A stretch of 64,000 nucleotides of DNA from Dictyostelium discoideum (Eukaryota): assembly GCA_000004695.1 (NCBI GenBank), contig CM000152.2, forward strand, positions 3,296,001 to 3,360,000. Reading direction: 5' to 3'. Shown one piece after another: positions 1-15,877 of this stretch (the stretch's first letter is position 1; every line of letters starts with the position of its first letter). The notes beneath the pieces were generated by a model. That model ran no database searches. It had not been told where the DNA came from and saw only the letters and a program-made list of their open reading frames with translations. A program made the translations under genes and the position numbers.

Positions 1-1
1 T

Positions 2-736
2 GAATCTAAATGGTTACGTCAAAGTGGTATTGTCATTCTTTTACCTCACGGTTTCGACGGTGCCGGTCCAGAGCATTCAAGTTGTCGTATTGAACGTTTC
101 CTTCAATTGAGTGATACCGAAGCTGTAAATGTCAAAGACGATACATTAATCAATCAAGAGACAAACTTTTACTTTATCAATCCTTCAACTCCTGCAAATT
201 ATTTCCATGCACTTCGTAGACAAATGATTAGAAACTATCGTAAACCATTGATTGTCGCTGGTCCAAAAGTATTATTACGTCATCCAAATTGTTTCTCAAC
301 TTTAAATGAAATGGCACCAGGAACTCATTTCCAAACAGTTTTATCCGATCCTGATACCATCAATAACGCATCCACAATTAAACGTGTCATCTTTTGTAGT
401 GGTAAAGTATTCTATGACCTCCAAGAGGAAAGAAAAGCAAAGAATTTCAATGATGTAGCAATCATTCGTCTTGAACAAATCGCTCCATTCCCATATCAAC
501 GTATTCAAGAAGAAATCAATCGTTATTCAAACGCTACTAAATTCGCTTGGGTTCAAGAAGAACAACAAAATGGTGGTTGTTGGTCATTCGTTGAACCACG
601 TTTCAAACAACGTTATCCACAAACTTCTCAAATTAAATATATTGGTAGACCACCTTTAGCTGCTTCTGCAATTGGTATCTCTTCAATTCATAAAAAAGAA
701 GTTTCTCAATTATTAATTGATGCTTTTAATTTTTAA
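2..736 (+). CDS. ogdh: 2-oxoglutarate dehydrogenase E1 component, C-terminal ~244 aa (5'-partial; continues upstream of the window)
   Basis: Frame 2 is open from position 2 to the TAA at 734-736. The translation ESKWLRQSGIVILLPHGFDGAGPEHSSCRIERFLQL...APGTHFQTV...VIFCSGKVFYDL...IRLEQIAPFPY matches the conserved C-terminus of OGDH E1. Confidence 0.85.
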   Translation, partial: ESKWLRQSGIVILLPHGFDGAGPEHSSCRIERFLQLSDTEAVNVKDDTLINQETNFYFINPSTPANYFHALRRQMIRNYRKPLIVAGPKVLLRHPNCFSTLNEMAPGTHFQTVLSDPDTINNASTIKRVIFCSGKVFYDLQEERKAKNFNDVAIIRLEQIAPFPYQRIQEEINRYSNATKFAWVQEEQQNGGCWSFVEPRFKQRYPQTSQIKYIGRPPLAASAIGISSIHKKEVSQLLIDAFNF

Positions 737-1936
737 AAAATAAAAAAATAAAAAAATAAAAAAATAAAAATAAAAATAAATTATAAATCTTAAAAAAAAA
801 AAAAAGAAAAAAATTTAAATATCTTTTTTTATTTTTATTTTTATTTTTTTTTTTTTATAATTATTTTATTTTCCAGTAAAAAAAAAAAAAAAAAAATATT
901 TGATCCTTAAAATTACATAAAAGGATTTTTTCATGTTTTGTTTTTTATTTTTATTTATTTTTTTATATTTAATAAATAATATAAATTCAAAATACAATTT
1001 CTTCACTATAAATAGAAATGAGTTTTAATAAAACTACTCTTTTCTTACTGTTTAAAAAAATAAAAATTAATATAACCCCCACCACTTTATTTATTATTTT
1101 TTTTACGTATTCTTACTATTGTTTATTTTTTTTATTTTTAATTTTTTTTTTATTTTTTTTAAAAGATTGTGGGGTAACCTTTTTAAGGTTTTTTTTTTTT
1201 TATTTTTTCAAAATTAGTTTTTACAATCTTTCAATTATATAATATATAAAATTTATTTAAATAAAAATAAATAACCTTTTTTTAGAAATTAAAAGTAATA
1301 ATCCTTATATATATTTTTTTTTTAAAAAATAAATAGATTGATTAATTTATCTAATACAAATTTATTAAATTAATTTATTATTTTTTATTTTTTATTTTTT
1401 ATTATAATTAAACCTTATAAAATATAAAAACACATTTTTCTAAAAAATTTTATTTATTTTTTAATTTATTTATTTATTTATTTAATAGTAATAATATTTA
1501 TCAATAATATATTTCAATAAAAAAAAACATAATAATAATAATATTTATAATAATAACAATAATAATCATAATAATAATAAAAAAATAAAAATAAAAATAA
1601 TAATATTTAAATGTTTATAGTATCAATAATTATTAGTTTAAAAAACAATAACAACGAAAACGAGAAACATAATATATTTTAGCATTAAATTAAATTTAGT
1701 TTATTGGTAAGTAATAATAATATTTTGTTTTGTTTGTATGTGTAAGTGGGTGTGTGTTATTGTTATTTTTTTTATTTTTTTTATTTGATAATTTTAAAAA
1801 TCAATGGTGTAATAATTTAACTATCAATTTCATTTTGATTATATTTGTATAATTATTGGTTAATCTAATAAAAACGGAGACATCTAATCATCATCATTTT
1901 AGAAACATAAAATTAAAAATTAAAACATAAAAAATA

Positions 1937-1968
<32 letters not shown>

Positions 1969-2448
1969 CACACACATATACCACATATAACCACACCTAA
2001 TCTACACCACTTAATAATTTTAAATGGTATGGTTTTTTTAAATTCCATATAAAATATATATTTAATTATTATTAAATTTAAAAAATATAAATTAATAATC
2101 AATCATCACATTGTTTTTATTTTTTTTTTTTTTTTTTTTTTTTTTTTGATTTCTTGAATTAATTCTCCACGCATTTTTTATTTATAATAATAAAATCATA
2201 ATAATCACCAAAAATTAAAATTTCATATTAATATTTGGTAATGATGGGTTAAAATTATAAATACAAATAGTTTTTGTTAAAATATAAACCATATTTGTAT
2301 ATTGTGCAATCGGAAATTGGACGTCAGATGTCGTATTTCAAATCAATAATTAAATTAATTTCATTCACACAGCTCCAATTACATTATAGTGTTGTTTTTG
2401 TTTTACTATGGTCATTATTCTAGTTAAAACTTTAATTAATTAAAAAAT

Positions 2449-2512
2449 TTGTGTGTGTGTTTGTGGTTTTTGTTTGTGTTTTGTTTGTGTTTTGTTTGTG
2501 TTTTGTTTGTGT
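2449..2512. repeat. GT-rich tandem repeat: (TG)n followed by about four copies of tgttttgtttg
   Basis: Direct reading: gtgtgtgtgtttgtggtttttgtttgtgttttgtttgtgttttgtttgtgttttgtttgtgtc. Confidence 0.7.
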
Positions 2513-3439
2513 CTCATTGTAACTTTATTTTTGTGGGAAATAAATAATAAAAAACCAATAAAAATAATAATAATAACAACTTTCATAACATTGGGTCCAC
2601 TTTCAAAAGGATAATATTATTTCCATCTATAAAAACATGTTTGAATTTTATTATTTGTAATTAGTATTGTGAATTTTTATATTATTTTAATTTTATTTTA
2701 AATTTCTTTGTTTGATTTTTTTTTTTTTTTTTTTTTTTTAAAAAATATAAATATTTAATATATATTTTTTTATTTTATTTTATTTTATTTTTTTTTAAAA
2801 TCATATATTTTCAATATAATTAAAATAAGATTCAATTTTAAAAATTATCACCAGTCCATTTATTTATTTATAACAAAAAAAAATAAAATAAAAAAAAAAT
2901 TCACATATTATCTATACATTTCTTATTTTTTTAATTAATTTTTTATTTTTTATTTTATATTTTTTTTATTTTTTTTATTTTTTATAATTTCAACAAATAA
3001 AATAAACTCACATAAATTCAATTATTTATTTATTTCCATACCATATTTTTTCATTCAATAAATATTTTATTTAATTAGTATGTAAAAAAAAAAAAAATAA
3101 AAAAAAAATTAAAAAAAATAGAAACAAAATAAAAATTTAACAATAATAGCTAAAATTAAAAAAATTATACAATTGTAAAAAATAAATGTTTATATGTTTT
3201 TTAAGGAAAATAAAAAAAAATATAACAACATTATAATTTTTTTTTTTTTTTTTTTTTTTCAAAGAAGATTTAAAACTAACACTAATTTATTTCATTTAAT
3301 AATTATTATATAATAGAAAAATTAATTTTCAATAGCCATAAAAAAGTTTTACCATATTTATTTATTTCATTTTTAATTTATTAACACCATTATATTTAAA
3401 TATTATTTTTTTAAATTATTTAATTCCATTTTTTATATT

Positions 3440-3478
<39 letters not shown>

Positions 3479-3809
3479 CTTTATTTAATTTGTAAATCAA
3501 AAATTATTATTTTTAAAATTTCATAAAAAAAACATAGTTTAGAATAATAAAAATAATAATAATTAAAATAATAATAATAATAAAAATAATAATAATATAT
3601 AGTTTATAAGTTTTATTTTTTCATTAAAATTATTTAAAAATATAAATTTGTTTTATTATTCCAAAAAAAAAAAAAAACTTATTTATATAAATATTTTATA
3701 ATATAAAAGACAGATTAATTAATTTGATTATAAAAATCAAATTAATATAATCAATTAAAACATCTCTATTCATATAAATTTTTGTGCATTATTTTATAAT
3801 TTTTAAAAA

Positions 3810-4006
3810 ATGACAAAAATGTTTCTTTCTTCAAAGAAAAAGAAATCAACAATTGAAACTTCAGATAAGAAGTATGGAGATGTAAAGTGTCTTAATAATA
3901 ATAAAATAAATAATACTGGTGTTGATATTGATCAACCGATGAAAAAAATAAATCATCAAAATAGTTTTAATAATATAGTTGAAATTCAACAACAACAACA
4001 ACAATT

Positions 4007-4053
<47 letters not shown>

Positions 4054-4499
4054 ATCCAGGTTACTCAGTTGATCAATCAATAGTTTTACAAAATAAAAAT
4101 TTTAATTCAAAAAGTCAGTTTGCTGGAGCATCTGAAATATATGGTAATAATAATATGGATAAGTCACCACCTGTTGCCAATAAACCATTTGAACAAAAAC
4201 ATCATAGTTTAAAAAAAATGTTTAAAAGAGTTTTAGATTTCAATAAAAAGAAAGATGTTGACCCTAAATTGGATGAATTTTTGAAATTGGTCGATTATCA
4301 TAGAGAATTTTTCAAGAGAAGTCCAGAAATTGATAGATATGTTATGACATTGGCATTTATATATATTAAGAAAGCTTTTCCTAATGATACTTTAATTTCA
4401 AATGAATTATTTTTTTATTCTTTATATTTAGCTTGGGTAAGTTTTTAATTTATTATTATTATTATTATTATTGTTAATATTATTATTTTTTATTAATTA

Positions 4500-4538
<39 letters not shown>

Positions 4539-4837
4539 TTTCTAAAAAATAGGAAACTGAAGAAGATTCTACATTGGGTTTAGAAAGTATTATTCATTAT
4601 ATAATTGGAAGTTATCCGTCATCAAAGAATAAAGATAAAAATCAAAGAAAACAAGAAATTATTGAATGGAGAATGAGATTAAGACAGTTCCATACTGGAA
4701 AAGATATTTTATGGAGAGCATTAGATTATAAAACAGTTGTCGATTTTCCACATATTCAAAAAACAATTAAAGCTTTTCCAAATCACGATATTTTAAAAAG
4801 AGAAAGAACTTCAACAACTTCAATTAAATTCTTTTAA
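3810..4837 (+). CDS. Speedy/RINGO-family cell-cycle regulator with a poly-Q N-terminus. Exons 3810..4436 and 4553..4837; intron 4437..4552, GTAAGT...AG.
   Basis: ATG at 3810. Exon 1 ends in phase 0 before a GTAAGT donor at 4437. The (T)n-rich intron ends at AG 4551-4552. The joined protein carries a RINGO-box signature: DRYVMTLAFIYIKKA...LYLAWETEED...EIIEWRMRL...DILWRALDYKTVV (compare SPDYA DRYLLAMTFVYF...MYLAHDMEED...DQLWARMKYRAAV). Confidence 0.65.
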
Positions 4838-5386
4838 AACATAATTTGATAATAATAATAATAATAATAATAATAATATAAAAAAATATATATATTTTTA
4901 TAATAAAGATTAAAAAAAAAAAAAAAAAAAAAAAAAAATAATAATAATGATAATAATAATAATAATACATAAACAATAATTAACAGAAACATAATATGGT
5001 AAAAATATTTGTATTTATAATAATAAAAATAATTCTTATTTATTAAAATGTATTTATTGTTTAGAAAAATTAAAAAATTGTAAATTATCAATTAAATTGA
5101 TTGTATAATTTCAAAACAAAAAAAAAATAGAAAAAAAAAAAATAATAAAAAAAATTTATATACATTCATTTGTATAAATAAAAAAAAAAAAGAAAAAAAG
5201 TTTTGTTTTCAAAAGGTTTTTTTTTTTTTTATTATTATTATTAAAGTTAAACTATTTTGAATTGGCGTAATATAATAAAAAATTATTTTTGTTTATTTAT
5301 TTATTTATTTTTTATTTATATAAATTAAATTTACAATAATGATGGTTTATAATAAACGTATTTACAATAGCATGTGATGCAGTTGT

Positions 5387-5565
5387 ATAGAGTATTTATA
5401 AATGACTTTAATAATATGTCGAACCAAGAGAAAAGGAAATCCTTATTTGGCTTTGATGTTGTGAGGCCATAGTAACGCAGAAGTAACATATCTATCTATC
5501 TGAATCTGAATTGGTTACCAATTCAATTGAATCTTTAAGCTATATTTCCTAATTTTTTTCTATAA

Positions 5566-5596
<31 letters not shown>

Positions 5597-5626
5597 AGAA
5601 AAAAATAAGTGTGATGAAAAGTAATT
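5387..5626. repeat. Left arm of a ~240-bp inverted repeat, paired with 7255..7496 (~90% identity)
   Basis: The reverse complement of 5387-5626 aligns with 7255-7496. For example, atagagtatttataaatgactttaataatatgtcgaaccaagagaaaaggaaa on the plus strand at 5387 matches the complement of 7443-7496. The arm contains a 31-codon pseudo-ORF, MQLYRVFINDFNNMSNQEKRKSLFGFDVVRP*, that copies the PRP6-like C-terminus. Confidence 0.8.
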
Positions 5627-5793
5627 TTTATGGGTCGTTAAAAAAATATACTGAAGTTATTAATTATTAATATGAAATAACAACACATTGAAATAATAAA
5701 TTTAATAGTTTTTTTATTTAGAAAAAGCCATTGATGATTATTATTATTATTATTATTAATCAATAAATTCAAAAGGAATAAAATTAAAAGTGA

Positions 5794-5824
<31 letters not shown>

Positions 5825-5989
5825 AAATAAAGGTAATAATTTGGATAATATAGAAACAGATTTTAAAAGGTAATTAATTTTTTAATATAGAAAAACCTAT
5901 TTTAGATAATATAAAAACTACAACTTATTGTTTAAACAAAAAAGCTCACAATATTAATTTTTTTTTTATTTTTTTTTTTTTAATATTAC

Positions 5990-6355
5990 AAAAAATTTAT
6001 AAAAGGTATCTTGATCTGGATCATCTGTGTCATCAGTATCATCAGTGTCATCTACCTTATCAACTTTATAATTTTCAAGATCTTGAGGACCAGTGCATGC
6101 TACAGTATAACGATGTGGACAAAGAATTTGACCATCAATATACTCATTATACTAACCAAAAAAGTGACAGTACTTTCTTGATTCATTTCTTTCTTTAGAC
6201 TCATGAACGCATTCAATAATTGAACGATTGTAATCTAAATGTGAGAGCGGTTGTTCAGTTAGAAGTCTCCCTTCGTTCTTGTGCACGCCATCTACACCTC
6301 TTGAAGTATTTTGTAAATATAGTTTCTTTAATTTTCCAAATCTTGTATTAAACAT
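5990..6355 (-). pseudogene. Minus-strand ORF interrupted by an in-frame TAG (6152-6154). It encodes a Cys/His-containing small protein with an acidic DDTDDTDD tail, of unknown family.
   Basis: The ORF-track ORF 6152..6355 (MFNTRFGKLKKLYLQNTSRGVDGVHKNEGRLLTEQPLSHLDYNRSIIECVHESKERNESRKYCHFFG*) continues in the same frame after the TAG as YNEYIDGQILCPHRYTVACTGPQDLENYKVDKVDDTDDTDDTDDPDQDTF. There is no Dictyostelium-size intron around the stop. Its GC content is clearly above the intergenic background. Confidence 0.35.
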
Positions 6356-7254
6356 AAAGCCTATTATTTAATTTAATTTCTTGTATGATATGTGCACATA
6401 TTACCTCACCCAATTACCAACCTTCAAACTAAAGTACAAGATTTTTGTGATGATATTCATTATGGAGAGGATAATAAGAGGTATTACAACACAATCAAAA
6501 ATGGGAAGCCATTTGTTTTTCCTTAAATTAAAAATAGTATTGTCATTAATCAACACATTGAAAATGTTTATGAATACCATTTATTGGATCATCAGTTGTA
6601 TTCTTGCAAGAATATTTCTCCAAAACTAGTAAAACTCTCCTACAGGAAAAAGTAGGACAGCCACTTTAAATAATTTTAAGTTTGTACAGGCAGGAGACAT
6701 TTTATTTACTAATGTATGCCCCATTATTCATTCTTATGAAAATAATTATCAAGAGCCACAATCAGAAGCTCAAAATTTAGTCTTCTTTTCAATTTTGAAT
6801 ATTCTATAAGCAAATCCATCTGTAATCATTATTTCAGGTTCAATATCTTTATATCATTTCAAAGAAGCTCTATATAAAATCGAAAATATCCAGTGGGACA
6901 ATGATTCAATCACTATCAATTGTAAGAAAATTATGTAGTTAAAGATTAAACACCTATGTATGCAAGAATCTATAAATCAATTAGATAATAAGCTAAAAAT
7001 ATTTTTTCAATTATACTAATAGTTTATTTAAAAAATTATATTATTTTTGTTAAATCATAATAATAATAATAATAATAATAATAATATTGAAAAGTTGATA
7101 TTTTAAAAAAAATAATTGTATTTAAAAAATTAAAACTCATAAATATGCCTTTTATTTCTTCTGAAGGATAAACCAATTGGTTAATCAGTATTAAAAAAAA
7201 AAAAAAAAAAAGATAATAATATTAATAACTTAAATATATTTTTTTAGCAACTCA

Positions 7255-7278
7255 CGAAAATTACTTTTCATCACACTT

Positions 7279-7310
<32 letters not shown>

Positions 7311-7496
7311 TTTATTGAAAAATATTAGGAAATATAACTAACTTAAAGATCTAATTGAATTGGTAACCAATTCAAATTAAGATAGATAGATATGTTACTT
7401 CTGAGGTTACTATGGCTTCACAACATCAGAGCCAAAGAGGGCTTTCCTTTTCTCTTGGTTCGACATATTATTAAAGTCATTTCTAAATACTCTATT
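7255..7496. repeat. Right arm of the inverted repeat. It overlaps the last 87 nt of the PRP6-like CDS and about 155 nt of its 3' flank.
   Basis: See the left arm at 5387..5626. This copy sits in the intact gene context and is continuous with CDS exon 7410..7886. Confidence 0.8.
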
Positions 7497-7891
7497 CAAT
7501 GATAAAACACCATCTGAACCAACCCAACATGAACCATATTCAGGTTTTTTTTCTTCAAGATATTGTTCTTTTGGTTGTGTCATTTCGAGTAATAATTTTT
7601 TAGCATTTCTCAATACTTGTCTACTGCTATCTAAAACGCAAACTGTACAATGAAGCCACATAAATCCATAATTTGGATCAGCATTGATACAAAGTTGTTC
7701 CAATTTTGAAATATCACAATTTGGACCTTTCTCCATAATCTCTAAACGAAGTAGTTCAATAAATGAATCTCCAAATTGTGGTGTAAATTGAATTGCAAAT
7801 TCTAAAAATCTTCTGGCTTCTCTTAGTTCATTATTATTTAATGCAATTCTAGCGCCTTCACACCAAACCTCACCAGATTTTGGTACCTAAT

Positions 7892-7934
<43 letters not shown>

Positions 7935-10111
7935 ATGTTAATTCATTTATATATTTTATTATAAATTTGATTTTTTTTAAAACAATGGTGGTTGATATTG
8001 TTATATTATTTTTAAACTTACAAATTGTAAAGCTTTCTTAAAAACATTTAATTGTGATTTAACACCTTTTAATTGATTTAATTGAATAAGAGCAGCCCAT
8101 AGTCTACCAGCACCACTATGAATTTTTAAAGATTCTTTTGCTTCTTTAATTGCTGCTTCATAATTGTTTGCTCTCATTTCAAGTAATACACTTTCTAAAA
8201 ATACTTTCCAATCTAAACGTGCTTCTACATGAGCCATCTTTAAAATTCTACGTGATTTATTAATGTTACCTGCATATTCCTCTAATCTTGAATATTCCAA
8301 TAATACCAATGATCTTAATTTGGATGGTACCTCCTCTAGAGCACGGAAAACCAATTTTCTAGCTATACAAATATTATCAGCATTTAATTCTGTTCTGCTA
8401 CCACCTAACCAAACTTTCCATAATAAATTCTCTGGACAAAGCTCGACACTCTTTACATAGGCAGCTCTAGAGAGTGTTAAATTTTTTGAACGTTCTTCAA
8501 TTTGAGCTGCTTCGAAATAGATTTTCCAAGTTACTTCACGTGATACAGCTTGTCTAGCACGTTCAACGGTATTACGAGTTGATTGAAGGAAACCATGACT
8601 AGTTTTCTCATATAGACGTAATGCACTAAACCAAAGTGGACCATATTTTGGATCTTCAAATAAACCTTTCTCTACAATGTTAATGGCACGTTCATACTCT
8701 TCACATCTCTCTTCAAGTTTATAAGCTTCTTGATAGATTGGACCATACCAAGGTACATGTTTCATGAGATATTTAAAGATCTTTCTAGCAACATCAATAT
8801 TACCAGCACGAGCCTCCAATAAACCACCCTCCATTACAGCTCTCCAAGTTTTATAGATTGATTGATCACGTAGTTGAGAAAGTAATGCTCTTGCTCCCTC
8901 TAAATTATCCATTTTCTCTTCATGACGAATACCTTTAATCAATAAACTCTCATTGAATGGACAATGTTTAAGACCCAATTGAAGTATCTTTTGACATTTC
9001 TCAAGACGACCATAATCTTCCTCCATTTTAGCATACTCTAACCAACCTTGACTAATATAGGGTTGAGTACTTGTAACCTTTCTATAGAATTTACGAGCCA
9101 ACTTAAGGTTATTTTGACGGTTAGCCAAATCTGCCAATTCTAAATAAACTCTCCAATGAACTTTTTCTGGTAAAACACTTAATGATTGAAAAGCAAATTC
9201 CATTGCAATCTCTAATCCTTCTTTTTCTTTTAATTTAAATTGTTTAATAAAGTGTTTATATTGTTGTTTAGAAACTGGACTCTCTACCAATTCACCTCTT
9301 TTAGATTCATTTGGTGGTGGTTTAGAATGATTAACTGTTGTTAATAACTCTTCATTATCTGAATCATTATTAATAATATTAATATTTGTTTGATTATTAA
9401 TTGTTGTAACATTATTTGTATTATTATTATGTTGTTGTTGTTGTCTTTGATTTGAAGTTGGTGGTTGTTGTTGTTGTGGTTGTTGTGATTGTTGTAGAAG
9501 AGGTGATTGAGTTGTTGATGTTTGTACATTTTGTTGTTGTTGTTGTTGTTGTTGTGTAGATTGTTGAGTTTGATTTTGTTTTTGATGTTGATTTTTGTGA
9601 TTTGGATGTGACTGATTATGGTGTTGGTTATGATGTTGGTTATGTTGATTATGTTGATGTTGGCCATGATGTTGGCTATGTTGATTGTGTTGATGTTGGC
9701 CATGGTGTTGATTATGTTGATGTTGACCATGATGTTGATTGTGTTGATGTTGACCATGGTGTTGATTATGTTGATGTTGACCATGGTGTTGCATTCANNN
9801 NNNNNNNNNNNNNNNNNNNNNNNNNNNNNNNNNNNNNNNNNNNNNNNNNNNNNNNNNNNNNNNNNNNNNNNNNNNNNNNNNNNNNNNNNNNNNNNNNGTG
9901 GTGATTGTTGTTGGTTATTGTTTAAAATCGGTTGATAGTAATACTTTGGATAGTGTTGTTGATTTTGTTGTTGATTTTGTTGTTGATTCTGTTGTTGGTT
10001 TTGTTGTTGATTTTGTTGTTGCTGTTGCTGTTGCTGTTGTTGCTGTTGCTGTTGCTGTTGCTGTTGTATTTGCATTTGCATTTGTAACATTTGTTGGTGT
10101 TGTAAGAGGCT

Positions 10112-10151
<40 letters not shown>

Positions 10152-10667
10152 ATTGGGTTTTGTTGCATTGAGTTTTGTTGTAATTGAATAGGTGGTGGTT
10201 TTACAACACTTGACCAATGATCTCTATTTGATGTTACAGTTGATTTAATTTGTTGATTATTTAAATATACAAGGTTTTGTGTTTGTTGTTGTTGTTGTTG
10301 TTGTCTTTGTTGTTGTTGTTGTAACATTGCTTGGGTGTGATTTGTTGAGGTTGATTGATCAGGTTGTAAAGATGGACTCCAATTGAATCCATTAACACCA
10401 GCATCAAATGACATATTTTGATAACTACCAGTGCTAGTATTTAATTTTTGTTGTTGTCTATAATTATTTGTGTTAATATTATTGTTATTATTGTTGCCAC
10501 TATAAATATCACCCAAAACTGGTGATGAAATTGGTGCATTTAATGGTGAAACTGATGGATTGGCAATATATTGAGGTGTTGGTGGTGTTTGATCAATTTT
10601 AATAATACCATTGATTGACGTATTTTGTTGTTGCTGTTGTTGCTGTTGCTGTTGTTGCTGTTGTTGC

Positions 10668-10729
<62 letters not shown>

Positions 10730-11151
10730 TTGTGTATAGAAAAATGGTGAAATTGGTGAAGGGGAAGATTTTAATTTTAATTTTTGTTGTTGTTGTTGTA
10801 ATTGTTGTTGTCTTGAAACTATTGAAGAATTTGTACTTGGTAAACCATTTATATTTCTCTCAGAGAATGGATGAAAGAAGTAATTTGGATTTCCAAATGA
10901 AATCTCTTCACCATCACTTAATCTCTCTAAAGATCTTTGAAGTAATTGTTGTTGTTCATCCAATAGTTTATCATCTTCCTCATCTATATCACCACTTCCA
11001 TTATTTATACTGATTCCATTGATGCTACTAATACCATTCATACCAAAACTAACATCATTAATCATCATATTACTACCACTACTACTTGTCATACCATTTA
11101 CTATTGGACTCACGATTCTCTGTGCATGATGACTATTTGTTATTAAACTAC

Positions 11152-11250
<99 letters not shown>

Positions 11251-11307
11251 TATTATTATTGTTGTTGATATTAAAATGTTGTTGTTGTTGTTCATGATAA
11301 TATTGTT

Positions 11308-11338
<31 letters not shown>

Positions 11339-11483
11339 GTTATAATATCCTCTATTTCCACCTCTAATAATATTAACATTATCTATTTGGTTATCATCTA
11401 TATCATATAAATTACCATGGGTAATACTGGTGTTGCTATTGTTATGAACATAGCTAAATGTTGGGGATATATATTGTTGTGGG

Positions 11484-11529
<46 letters not shown>

Positions 11530-11728
11530 GATGATGTTGTTGTTGATGATGTTGTTGTTGTTGATGTTGTTGATGATAATTGCCACCAAATCTAACTTGA
11601 TTGAACTGTGTTGTATGTTGCTGTTGTTGTTGTTGTACTTGAGTATTATTTTGTTGTTGGTGGTGATGCTGTTGTTGATTTAACATCATCCTACCAAAAG
11701 AATAGGATAGAGAGTCTTCGTTATTCAT
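7410..11728 (-). CDS. PRP6-like HAT/TPR-repeat protein with a very long Q/N/H-rich low-complexity N-terminus. Exons 11728..(gap)..8022 and 7886..7410; intron 8021..7887.
   Basis: ATG at 11728 (MNNEDSLSYSFGRMM...). After the N-gap the frame of ORF 8001..9794 carries (HGQHQHNQH)n and then HAT repeats (VHWRVYLELADLANRQNNLKLARKFYRKV...). A GTAAGT donor at 8021-8016 and an AG at 7888-7887 join in phase 0 to give VPKSGEVWCEGARIALNN...CINADPNYGFMWLHC. The C-terminal architecture parallels PRPF6 (LESVLLE..., ALQFVPKSG, ...AEPRHGELWC). The true frame across the gap cannot be verified. Confidence 0.6.
9600..9786 (-). repeat. 27-nt in-frame tandem repeat (about 7 copies) encoding HGQHQHNQH
   Basis: Direct reading shows repeating caccatggtcaacatcaacataatcaa units (seen as their plus-strand complement). 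The repeat runs into the N-gap. Confidence 0.85.
9787..9897. other. Assembly gap of 111 N inside the coding tandem repeats of the PRP6-like gene
   Basis: Literal run of N. It is flanked on the left by a 27-nt tandem repeat encoding HGQHQHNQH (9600-9786) and on the right by (CAA/CAG)n. Confidence 0.99.
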
Positions 11729-12305
11729 TCTTTTTTTTTTTTTTTTTTTCTTATCTGTTTTTGGTTGTATTGATATATTTATATTGATAATTGATACTGA
11801 TATTGTTGATAATTGATAGTTGATAATTGATTATTGATTATTGATTATTGATTATTGATTATTGATTATTGATTATTGATATTTGACTTTGTTTTTTAAA
11901 AATTTTAAAAAAAAACAATAAAAAAAAAAAATAATAATTAAATTTAAAATTAAAATAAAGTCTTGAAACTGGAAAAAAAAAAAATAAACTTGATGGTTGT
12001 GTTTTTTAAATATTCTTGTAGATCTTATTCTAAAGAACACTAAAATTTCACTGTTTATATTTATTTCTTTTCTTTTCTCTTCTCTTCTCTTTTTTTTAAT
12101 TATATTATATTATATAAAATAAAAAAAATAAAAAAACAAAATAAAATAATATAAAAAAACTATTAAATTAGTATATATATTTATATATAAATATATTGTT
12201 ACTGGTATTTTAAATAAAATAAAATTTTAAAATAAAATAAAATATATAAAATAAAATAAAATAAAAAAAAAAAAAAAAAAAATCTTAATTGTTTTTTTTT
12301 TATTA

Positions 12306-12364
<59 letters not shown>

Positions 12365-12681
12365 TTTTTATTTTTTTTAAAATTAAATTTTTATGCTGGT
12401 TTTTGAATTTATTATATTACTTTCCAAACCAATTATAGGTTTTATAGTGTGGCGTATTGATGTGTTTTTTTATTTATTTTTTTTTATTTTTTATTTTTTT
12501 TTGCTTTTTTTGTTTTTTTATTTTTTTTTTTTATTTTTTTTTTTTTTTGTGTGATAAAAATACAATAAAATAATATGATGTTGTTTGTTGTTGGATGACG
12601 GTTACATATAAAAAAAATTTAAAAAAAAATTGAAAAAAATTAAAAAAAAAAAAAATTCAAAAAATTAAAAAATAAAAAAAA

Positions 12682-12715
<34 letters not shown>

Positions 12716-13263
12716 TTGAAAAAATTAACAGTCAGTTGAAATGGAGGCGCCAAAATTCAAAATTTAAATTTAAATTAATGGAGGGGGCAAATTAAAAAAT
12801 AAAAAAAAAAAAATAAAAAAAAAAATAAAAAAAAAAAATAAAAATAAAAGACTTTTTTTGGAAAATCTGATTAATTCTTGAGCATAAAAAAAAAAAAAAA
12901 AAAAAAAAATTTAGATTTTAAAATTTTTTTTATTTTTTTTGGCTTTGCAATTTAAAATTTTTTTCTTTTTCTTTTTTTTTTTTATTTTCTTTTTTTTTTT
13001 TTTATATCAATTTTTTTATTTTTTTTATTTTTATTTTTTTTTTTTTTTATTTTTATTTTTTTTTTTTTTTTTTTTTGTCCCCCTGTAATATCTTTGGGAT
13101 GTAAAAAAATAAAAAAAAAAATAACATAAAAAAATAAAATAAAATAAAAAAATAAATAAAAACATGACTGTAAAATTTTTTGATTTTTTGATTTTTTGAT
13201 TTTTTTTTTTTTTTGATTTTTTTTTTTTTTTTTTTAATTTTTCATTAATTTAAATTTTTTACA

Positions 13264-13619
13264 ATGACAGAACCAAATAATAATACAAGTTCACTAGCAG
13301 CACAACCTGTTGCAGCAACATCATCAACAGCAGCCACAATCAATAACACAACAGCAACAACAATAACAACAACAGCACCAGCATCAGCAGCAACAACAAC
13401 GATTTCACCAGGAACAGCATTTTCCTTAATAAACTCAAACCCATTATTAAATTCAGTTGAAGATAATGATTTATTAGTTAAATCTATTGCAGAAGGATAC
13501 TCAAATTATCTTGGTTTTTCACAAAGTACAAATGACCAAGCTAAAAATATTGATGATACAATTGAATATATGTTAGCAAGATTAGATGAGTTTGGTGCTT
13601 TTGTTGAAACTGTATGTAG

Positions 13620-13685
<66 letters not shown>

Positions 13686-14014
13686 TAGTATTAAAAAAAA
13701 AAAAAACCAATCAAACATATTAATTAACTTATTATTATTGTTATTATTATTGTAATATAGATAAAAACAGATACAGATAAAACTGATTCAAAACTTATAC
13801 CATTATTATTTGAAAAAACAAAAGAAGTTCAACAATTTTTCCCAATTATCGATAAACTAACTGAATTATCATCAGATATTAATAAAAATATTTCAATATT
13901 AGAGGATAGATTAAATCAAGCTGATAGACATGTTTCAAATTTAACTGGAAAGAGCAACCCATTAAAATGGGTTTTATCTCATATTGTAAGTATTTTATTT
14001 TAATTTTGTTTTTG

Positions 14015-14057
<43 letters not shown>

Positions 14058-14324
14058 AATTAAAAATAATAAATGTATATTAATTATCAAAATTATATAT
14101 ATATTTAGCAAAAAGAAGAAGATATTTTGCAACAAATTAAAAATTCACAAGAATCAAATAATAATAATAATAATCCTCAACTCAGATTTGAACCACTCAA
14201 AATTCATAATACAACTGAATTCTTTAAACAAGTTAGAAGTCAAGCACAACCATCTAGTACTAATGCTACTACTACTACTACTACTTCTAATATAACGCAA
14301 AATGAAACATTAAAAAAAGAATAA
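13264..14324 (+). CDS. Small T/S-rich coiled-coil protein of unknown function. Exons 13264..13611, 13761..13985, 14109..14324.
   Basis: ATG at 13264. A GTATGT donor at 13612 precedes an intron containing (TTA)n, with AG at 13759-13760. A GTAAGT donor at 13986 precedes AG 14107-14108. All junctions are phase 0, and the stop TAA is at 14322-14324. The encoded protein reads ...EYMLARLDEFGAFVET|IKTDTDKTDSKLIPLLFEKTKEVQQFF...KWVLSHI|QKEEDILQQIKNSQ... Confidence 0.55.
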
Positions 14325-14608
14325 ATATATTTATAAATAAAAACTCTTGTAAATTAAATAATATGGTATGATAATAAATTAAAATTATTACCTTTACTTG
14401 TAGATAAATAACCCGATATTTATACAAGTTTAAAAACAAAAACAAAAAATAAAAAAAAAAAAAAAAATAGAATTCGCCTATAATTAAAAGAAATTGTTTT
14501 AAATATAATTTTAAAAATCTATTATGATATATAATCGGACTTTTTTTTTATTTTTTTTTATTTTTATTTATTTATGTTAGTTTATTGATTTAAATTTATA
14601 ATTTATTG

Positions 14609-15235
14609 TTATACTGATTCTTCACCCATATTATTTGTTGTAGCGGTCGTTGTGGTAGTAGTGGTCAAATCATTTCTGGAATCAGTTGATACAGATATAC
14701 TAATTAATAAAGGTTTTGATTCTTGAGTTTGAAATAAATCTAAAACCAATTTTATACTAAAAAACATAAATAAACTCCATATTATGAATAAAACTGTAAA
14801 TAATATTCTAAAAGGGTATGATATATTAAATTTATTATTATTACCAATTTCTAAAAATTGGCAAATATCGTATGAAGACATAAAAAATGATACTTCTGAT
14901 AAGGTGCAATACTTTTTTTTTTTTTTTTTTTTATTATTTACATAAAAAAAAAATAATAATTTTAATAGTTTTAATAATTTTAATAATAATAAATAAATGA
15001 TATTTACCAATACTAGAAATGATTTTTTTAAAGTTTTAATTCCAAATAATCCAATTATAATTGTTACTATTTCTATAGCCATATTACATATTGATAAAAA
15101 TGAAAAGAAACACCAAGGTATCCTTAATAGTATCATTATTAAAAATAACCATTTTAATTTGTATATTACTTTTTCTAATTCTGTTAATTCATTATAATTT
15201 TCACATTCAAATAATGATAAATCACCACCAATCAT
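14609..15235 (-). CDS. Small multi-pass (about 4 TM) membrane protein. Exons 15235..15008 and 14911..14609.
   Basis: ORF with four hydrophobic segments. A 96-nt low-complexity stretch (15007..14912, GTAAAT...AG) is in-frame but intron-like, coding only LLLKLLKLLK-FFF-KKKKKKK. The model is equally consistent with that stretch being retained. Confidence 0.4.
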   Translation of the reverse strand: MIGGDLSLFECENYNELTELEKVIYKLKWLFLIMILLRIPWCFFSFLSICNMAIEIVTIIIGLFGIKTLKKSFLVLVNIIYLLLLKLLKLLKLLFFFYVNNKKKKKKKYCTLSEVSFFMSSYDICQFLEIGNNNKFNISYPFRILFTVLFIIWSLFMFFSIKLVLDLFQTQESKPLLISISVSTDSRNDLTTTTTTTATTNNMGEESV

Positions 15236-15877
15236 TATAAATATATTATTATTATTATTATTATTTTTATTTTATTTTATTTTTTATTTTTTATTTTTTT
15301 TTTATTTTATTTTATTTTATTTTATTTATTTATTTATTTTATAAACGGAAAAATTTAGTTTTCATCATATATATAGTTTTATTTTTCATTATATAATTTA
15401 ATATATTTTTTTTTGTTCTTTTTTAAATTACTTAATATTATTATTGACTTGGAATGTGTAAAAAAAAAAAAAAAAATAAAAAAAAAAAAAAAAATATAAT
15501 ATAATTTTTTTTTAAAAATTGAATGAAATAAATAAATAAATATTTTTTTTTCTTGTTATTTTAAATACTCATCGTTCATTAGAAAAAAATTATTACAATA
15601 ATAACCAAAACAGATGGTTATAGATTTTATATTGCCTTTTTTTTATTTAGATTTTTATTATTATTTTATTTTATATTTTTTTAATTTTATTTTTTTTAAA
15701 GATTTAGTTGGTGTAAAAAAAAAAAAAATAAAAAAAAAATAATAATAAAAATAATAAAAAGGATGGATTAAAAAAAGGAATTGGTGTTTTTGATTTGGCC
15801 AAATCAAATAATCAAAAATCATAAATTTAAAAAAAAAAAAAAAAATTAAAATAAAAAATTAAAAATAAATCTTTTTT

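Follow-up and report, generated by a model that had tools for sequence, protein, structure and literature searches.

Organization of the locus

The DNA analysed here, called the window in what follows, is a stretch of 64,000 nucleotides (nt) from Dictyostelium discoideum (assembly GCA_000004695.1, contig CM000152.2, positions 3,296,001 to 3,360,000 of the forward strand), and the element in question is an inverted repeat lying at the 3' end of a gene for a TPR/HAT-repeat protein. The protein encoded in the window is 100% identical to DDB_G0280363 of D. discoideum AX4, and the right arm of the repeat contains the end of this gene, which will be referred to as the host gene. The two arms enclose an interior of 1.54 kb (5674-7212), and the main open reading frame (ORF) found there is 100% identical to DDB_G0280361 of AX4. 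Judging by these gene identifiers, the window probably belongs to chromosome 3 of AX4. The features of the locus are collected in Table 1.

Table 1. Features of the inverted repeat and of the adjoining gene end (positions in the window)
Feature	Position	Strand	Description
Left arm	5383..5673	+	Reads as an inverted, decaying copy of the DDB_G0280363 3' end; 29 sense codons and TAG stop (5383-5472), then ~200 nt of 3' flank
Perfect 17-nt palindrome GAATTGGTTACCAATTC	5508..5524		In the left arm; apparently copied from the palindrome of the host 3' untranslated region
Orphan interior ORF, core of DDB_G0280361	5969..6355	-	In-frame TAG at 6152-6154; coding-like codon usage on both sides
GC-richer (25-30%) stretch, ~600 bp	6380..7000		No long ORF, stops in all frames; contains the AX4 first exon 6708-6731 (-)
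Right arm	7213..7499	-	Native last 29 codons and stop (7410-7499) and ~197 nt of 3' flank of DDB_G0280363; apparent parent of the duplication
AATAAA hexamer, likely poly(A) signal	7311..7316	-	~95 nt past the host stop; TATAAA in the copy
Perfect 17-nt palindrome GAATTGGTAACCAATTC	7357..7373		Host 3' untranslated region, ~40 nt past the stop codon
Last exon of DDB_G0280363 (TPR/HAT-repeat protein, PRP6-like repeats)	7410..7885	-	Supported by 100% identity, Pfam and PDB

An inverted repeat with sharp outer limits

When the 64-kb window was searched with blastn, positions 5383-5673 aligned in inverted orientation with 7499-7213 at 87.2% identity over 296 columns (E 8e-99), and the same arms were recovered by a repeat search and by MAFFT alignment. 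The inverted repeat is far beyond chance. An earlier interpretation made from the letters of the DNA alone (the sequence-only reading) had already placed such a repeat at 5387-5626 and 7255-7496, and the arms prove to be longer than it supposed. At the outer boundary the homology ends sharply, the 15-90 nt that follow being no more alike than shuffled sequences (p 0.2-0.6), and the other blastn matches of the region within the 64 kb consist solely of poly-A/T or AAT-type low complexity. Perfect runs of 40, 24, 22 and 22 nt are still shared by the arms.

The left arm preserves the outline of the end of a protein. A pseudo-C-terminus, likewise described in the sequence-only reading, is found on the plus strand at 5377-5472, where it reads ...NDFNNMSNQEKRKSLFGFDVVRP up to the stop, and an incidental ATG at 5377 opens a 31-codon pseudo-ORF (MQLYRVFINDFNNMSNQEKRKSLFGFDVVRP, followed by the stop). 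The codon-usage score of the left arm is null-like, at -0.29 per codon, on a scale in which true coding windows have a mean of 0.42 and 195 short non-genic ORFs a mean of -0.47. The 17-nt palindrome gives two matches in the window, against none expected by chance. As a separate observation, this palindrome, GAATTGGTWACCAATTC, is intact in the copy too, and could be a 3'-untranslated-region hairpin or a protein-binding site.

The repeat in a second assembly

Both arms are also present in a second D. discoideum assembly, GCA_054883475.1, whose chromosome CM142509.1 is collinear with the window and 99.67% identical to it over positions 1-9795 and 99.3% over 9898-15869. Between 5000 and 8000 this assembly differs from the window only in the lengths of two homopolymers (7285-7291 and 7897-7904) and thus reproduces exactly both the repeat and the TAG that interrupts the interior ORF, while the 100-N gap of the window (9798-9897) corresponds in it to 644 bp. 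De novo assemblies from Nanopore and Illumina data, AX2-214 among them, were reported by Holland et al. 2025 (PMC12745789), and GCA_054883475.1 is probably one of these.

These data bear directly on the notion that the repeat arose as an artefact when the AX4 reference was cloned or assembled. In its favour it could be argued that the N gap is just 2.3 kb off and that an AT-rich genome is difficult to assemble. However, the second assembly, with a chromosome of 6.43 as against 6.36 Mb, fills the gap and repeats the arms, the interior and the TAG apart from the two homopolymer lengths mentioned, and a mis-join would not yield arms that are 13% diverged. The sequence-only reading had raised the possible absence of the inverted copy from an independent assembly, and the copy is there in GCA_054883475.1. 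The chance that an artefact explains the locus is accordingly rated as close to nil and, provided that the second assembly was not reference-guided, this explanation is refuted.

The left arm as a DNA-level copy of the gene end

The conservation of the host protein gives a direction to the duplication. Its C-terminal motif, of the form ...LSLN..(7-8 residues)..S.EERRKxIFGSDQ[VI]KP, is also found in the orthologue from Tieghemostelium lacteum, and related forms occur in Vannella and in many other protists, which indicates that the coding part of the right arm is ancient host sequence. Because the right arm is conserved in orthologues, the left arm is, as judged from these comparisons, the copy, and the right arm the native 3' end of the gene in its original place. 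When T. lacteum was taken as the outgroup for the seven coding differences between the arms, four fell on the left copy and one on the host, and two were left unpolarised. The changes on the left copy are all non-synonymous (N>Y, R>I, S>F and K>R) and affect residues that are conserved between the host and the outgroup. The left copy also has residues that are specific to D. discoideum, which points to an origin after the split between D. discoideum and T. lacteum. At the T. lacteum locus itself a syntaxin gene lies downstream, and within 10 kb there is neither an inverted copy of the gene end nor a homologue of the interior.

In the gapped alignment, the coding part of the arms shows 83/90 identities (Kimura two-parameter distance, K2P, 0.082), as against 178/205 ungapped identities in the non-coding part (K2P 0.146), where in addition there are 42 gap columns, mostly in or beside A/T runs. 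The coding divergence is therefore about half of the non-coding one, as expected when only the coding part of the parent is under constraint.

The limits of the duplicated segment indicate how the copy was made. The segment starts in the middle of an exon, within 7410-7885, and runs ~100 nt past the AATAAA at 7311-7316. Both arms contain an A-rich run, which lies internally, and the copy has no A-tail at its inner end. Homology that continues ~100 nt beyond the hexamer, together with the lack of a terminal poly(A), argues for a copy made at the DNA level and not from mRNA. A processed retrocopy was rejected on these grounds, namely the extension past the AATAAA, the lack of an added A-tail and the lack of a target-site duplication (TSD). 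The left arm displays the features of a pseudogene fragment, as it is in opposite orientation to an identifiable parent, is truncated mid-exon, has neither a promoter nor the remainder of the gene, and has undergone non-synonymous change.

The interior and DDB_G0280361

The sequence-only reading had described the interval between the arms as no ordinary AT-desert and as holding a GC-richer minus-strand ORF, at 5990-6355, broken by an in-frame stop. Both descriptions hold, the ORF being slightly longer than proposed (Table 1) and the GC content reaching 26-36% from ~5990 to 7000, as against 8-15% in the flanking spacers (exons have 26-38%). The codon scores on either side of the TAG are 0.31 and 0.60 log2-units per codon, and such coding-like usage on both sides suggests that the interior may once have held a continuous ORF of ~129 codons that was hit by a nonsense mutation. 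The TAG is genuine, given that it is present also in the second assembly.

The interior ORF is an orphan. Both a word-indexed search of 5.8 billion proteins and an exhaustive HMMER search of 1.84 billion representatives matched only the same two D. discoideum models, and a comparison with PDB sequences yielded a chance-level match only. Exact-protein look-ups with the AX4 DDB_G0280361 protein, the 67-aa ORF and the 108-aa last-exon ORF retrieved no further strains or transcripts on record. A match to zf-CCCH_3 was discarded, as it is sub-threshold (E 0.042) and the spacing of the Cys and His residues is unfit for a CCCH finger. Nor does the interior derive, as a decayed copy, from the host gene or another gene of the window, since the comparison within the window revealed no resemblance. 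No protein match was obtained for the plus-strand interior pseudo-ORF, and no non-coding RNA or tRNA was detected in or near the locus by Rfam, at gathering thresholds and at E<=1, or by ARAGORN.

The adjoining stretch at 6380-7000 gave no protein match, no Pfam domain and no Rfam or tRNA match, and it resembles nothing else in the 64-kb window, the host gene included. Its plus-frame codon scores are borderline (0.13-0.23), and it would represent either decayed coding sequence or a promoter or untranslated region.

The two existing gene models of DDB_G0280361 disagree. The AX4 model begins with the tiny first exon listed in Table 1 and ends at the TAG. The newer model, ACTFIT_010988, contains a 66-nt 'intron' (6143-6208) that has a normal GC content and excises just the TAG, and it places its last exon (5492-5539) in the left arm. 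Since this 'intron' is GC-normal and merely skips the TAG, ACTFIT_010988 looks like an ab initio device. At least one of the two models is an annotation artefact, and the DDB_G0280361 locus may be a pseudogene.

Comparison with DNA transposons

DNA transposons (Tdd, DDT and thug) account for ~1.5% of the D. discoideum genome (PMC5633606), and one proposal of the sequence-only reading was that the locus is a decayed element of this kind, Tdd/DDT/thug-like or of an unknown type, whose terminal inverted repeats (TIRs) had captured host sequence and whose degenerate internal gene would be the interior. The proposal has some appeal, in that the ~290-bp arms are close in length to the 260- and 297-bp TIRs of TDD-4 and TDD-5 (PMC2836005), and that a stop-disrupted ORF lies inside the interior. 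Nevertheless, the arms are host sequence from the outermost base: the 90 nt at the outer end of the right 'TIR' encode the C-terminus, itself conserved, of a host protein of ancient origin and are continuous with the exon at 7410-7885. Neither a 5-bp nor any other TSD, a mark that the sequence-only reading had suggested looking for, is found at the boundaries, where the outer flanks (...GTGATGCAG on the left and TGATAAAAC... on the right) are without a direct repeat. A Pfam search of all interior fragments of at least 33 aa, in any frame, detected no transposase or integrase, no paralogue of the interior ORF turned up in two D. discoideum proteomes or elsewhere, and there is no second copy of the arms or of the interior in the 64 kb.

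The comparison with TDD-4 and TDD-5 (Ginger2/Tdd) is instructive in this respect, because the likeness goes no further than TIR-like arms of ~260-300 bp placed around an internal region. Those elements measure ~3.8 kb, encode a Gypsy-integrase-like transposase, are flanked by 5-bp TSDs and are multi-copy (PMC2836005), whereas the locus described here has host-gene arms, no transposase and no TSD, and is single copy in the available data. The transposon proposal is thus considered very improbable.

A probable local inverted partial duplication

The other proposal of the sequence-only reading, an inverted segmental duplication next to the gene, fits the observations, with the right arm as the conserved gene end and the left arm as its decaying copy. 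We consider it likely that the locus is a single-copy, lineage-specific inverted partial duplication made at the DNA level, and that its left arm is decaying neutrally. According to this model, the ~290-bp end of DDB_G0280363 would have been copied in reverse ~1.54 kb downstream, beyond DDB_G0280361, in one event that inserted the copy between the present positions 5382 and 5674. Replication template switching and templated filler synthesis are known routes to such a geometry, and the copy could have originated through a template switch during replication or through templated 'filler' synthesis repairing a break at 5382|5674, with the gene end acting as the donor. The left copy would since have been a non-functional gene fragment in neutral decay, the parent still being under protein-level constraint, and what had been taken for a '1.6-kb cassette' would be the ordinary neighbour DDB_G0280361, caught between donor and copy, and not a mobile unit.

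The locus indeed resembles small templated inverted insertions and duplicate pseudogene fragments, for the segment is ~290 bp long, inverted, located 1.5 kb from its donor and begins mid-exon. Non-transcribed flank is included, there is neither a TSD nor a poly(A), and the copy decays while the parent is conserved. The locus departs from typical templated insertions in that the diagnostic junction microhomologies are no longer readable, and the mechanism is a proposal.

A larger inverted duplication, in which either all of the gene or much of its 3' portion was once duplicated head-to-head over the spacer and the left copy then lost by deletion down to its last 290 bp, would produce a palindrome with spacer of the same geometry as a large fold-back duplication, and the deletion would also give a sharp mid-exon boundary at 5383. 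However, no residual homology, either at the DNA level or in translation, was detected between 3000-5382 and 7500-12500, and the flank to the left of 5383 is a typical AT-rich spacer, followed by an unrelated plus-strand gene. Moreover, two events are required where one suffices. This scenario is therefore held to be unlikely.

Several points weigh against the model of a single, neutrally decaying inverted insertion. The outgroup comparison rests on one locus of the distant T. lacteum, and the independence of GCA_054883475.1 is deduced from the filling of the gap and from PMC12745789, and not from the assembly record. The copy number of the arms and the interior at the DNA level covers the 64-kb window. 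Furthermore, a divergence of ~13% leaves no reliable microhomology at the junctions, which makes the mechanism unreadable from them. Finally, neutrality is deduced from the decay of the coding sense, and selection on the complementarity of the arms would be compatible with the same data, as the perfect runs of 40, 24, 22 and 22 nt persist.

A possible hairpin or antisense RNA

An alternative is that the repeat is a functional hairpin or natural-antisense locus, in which minus-strand double-stranded RNA (dsRNA) would be converted through DrnA and Argonaute into small interfering RNAs (siRNAs) tuning DDB_G0280363. The machinery of RNA interference is present in D. discoideum. A minus-strand RNA running over the left arm would carry the complement of the 3' end of the DDB_G0280363 mRNA, and in a read-through RNA that includes both arms these would pair as a long imperfect duplex, giving a stem of ~290 bp. 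A minus-strand RNA of this kind could arise when transcription of DDB_G0280363 reads through, or when a transcript of DDB_G0280361 extends into the left arm.

The arrangement is favourable in several respects, as DDB_G0280363 and DDB_G0280361 lie in tandem, both on the minus strand, and the left arm is without a minus-strand AATAAA. In silico, the arms cofold at -315.8 kcal/mol, as against -87.9 +/- 4.2 for shuffles, and 257/287 arm bases are paired arm-to-arm in the minimum free energy structure of the 2117-nt read-through RNA. The term 'hairpin-forming' used in the sequence-only reading is thus upheld as far as these folding predictions go. The perfect runs that persist between the arms would also suit a duplex, and the terminal exon of ACTFIT_010988 falls within the left arm. 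There is, in addition, a precedent in D. discoideum, where cloned small RNAs have been proposed to come from a genomic inverted repeat with a ~320-bp stem and a 900-nt loop (PMC2175303).

On the other hand, seven minus-strand AATAAA hexamers lie between the host stop and the left arm, one of them ~95 nt past the stop and another directly past the interior ORF. The arms have drifted to 87% identity with many indels and show no sign of maintenance, and the support from ACTFIT_010988 is lessened by the fact that the model looks ab initio, its 66-nt 'intron' just skipping the TAG. No Rfam match was obtained at the locus. In the supplementary text of Liao 2018, no microRNA (miRNA) is listed at the locus and neither gene ID occurs; two of the three chromosome-3 occurrences there lie at 3.66 and 3.74 Mb, beside DDB_G0280709.

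Two known systems offer parallels. The Skipper-fragment inverted repeat (Hinas et al. 2007, PMC2175303) has a similar stem length and a loop of about a kilobase; unlike that hairpin, the repeat studied here has a loop of 1.54 kb containing another gene and several poly(A) hexamers, and it is known from sequence alone. In the 'inverted duplication' model, which explains young MIRNA genes of plants (PMC3237417), the arms derive from the potential target gene, as they do here. By analogy, the inverted copy might be an endogenous dsRNA trigger feeding DrnA, RNA-dependent RNA polymerase and Argonaute, that is, a young gene-derived siRNA or proto-miRNA locus. A functional hairpin or antisense locus tuning DDB_G0280363 is judged improbable, and this more specific version of it is slightly more doubtful still.

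The host gene and its surroundings

The host protein, assigned to 7410-9794 on the minus strand of the window, is a member of a TPR/HAT family that is widespread among protists. In this family the extreme C-terminus is conserved (...EERRKAIF[L/GSDQIKP]), and the database names are inconsistent ('la-related protein 1', 'FPGS1'). Its nearest solved structure in a PDB sequence search is that of the HAT repeats of human PRP6 (E 6e-28), and the label 'PRP6-like' given by the sequence-only reading can be retained as a statement of resemblance. Since no PRP1_N domain was detected in the protein, DDB_G0280363 may, on sequence grounds, represent a paralogue of PRP6 and not the orthologue that acts in the spliceosome. 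No papers on DDB_G0280363 or DDB_G0280361 were retrieved by literature searches.

The reference gap at 9798-9897 falls inside DDB_G0280363. In the second assembly a single ORF of 1422 codons spans this gap (locus coordinates 4102-8370, the gene covering 4102-8953), and the product called there has 1574 aa, as against 749 aa in the AX4 model, which is therefore probably 5'-truncated by the gap. The long Q/H/N-rich ORF found at 9341-11728 of the window is part of the same gene.

Among the relatives of the host protein, 'Synstelium polycarpum' P015617 (EukProt entry EP01133) matches the D. discoideum query at 90% identity and shares a 90%-identity cluster with T. lacteum KYQ91705.1. After the Synstelium and T. 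lacteum proteins, the next matches fall to ~60%. Either the conservation across dictyostelid groups is unusually high or the EukProt sample is mislabelled or contaminated.

Upstream of the left arm lies a plus-strand gene at 3810-4837, with exons at 3810-4436 and ~4574-4837 and a product of 303 aa in the second assembly. Its second exon resembles the Spy1/Speedy cell-cycle regulators weakly and below threshold (E 5.7e-4; 20.7 bits, the cut-off being 25).

Implications

The suspicious 'TIR cassette' in the reference genome of D. discoideum is real, yet it is an ordinary inverted duplication of local origin, and annotators of repeats and transposons should not call it a mobile element. The conflict between the gene models of DDB_G0280361, of which one takes an exon from the duplicated arm, calls for a review. 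As such, the locus is an ordinary structural relic of mainly housekeeping value. At the same time, it adds a clean case of a short, templated, inverted insertion that can be dated, in a genome that is very AT-rich and mutates at a low rate. Should it prove true that the arms yield small RNAs, the locus would represent natural hairpin or antisense regulation derived from a gene in Amoebozoa, reached by the same route of inverted duplication as the MIRNA genes of plants.

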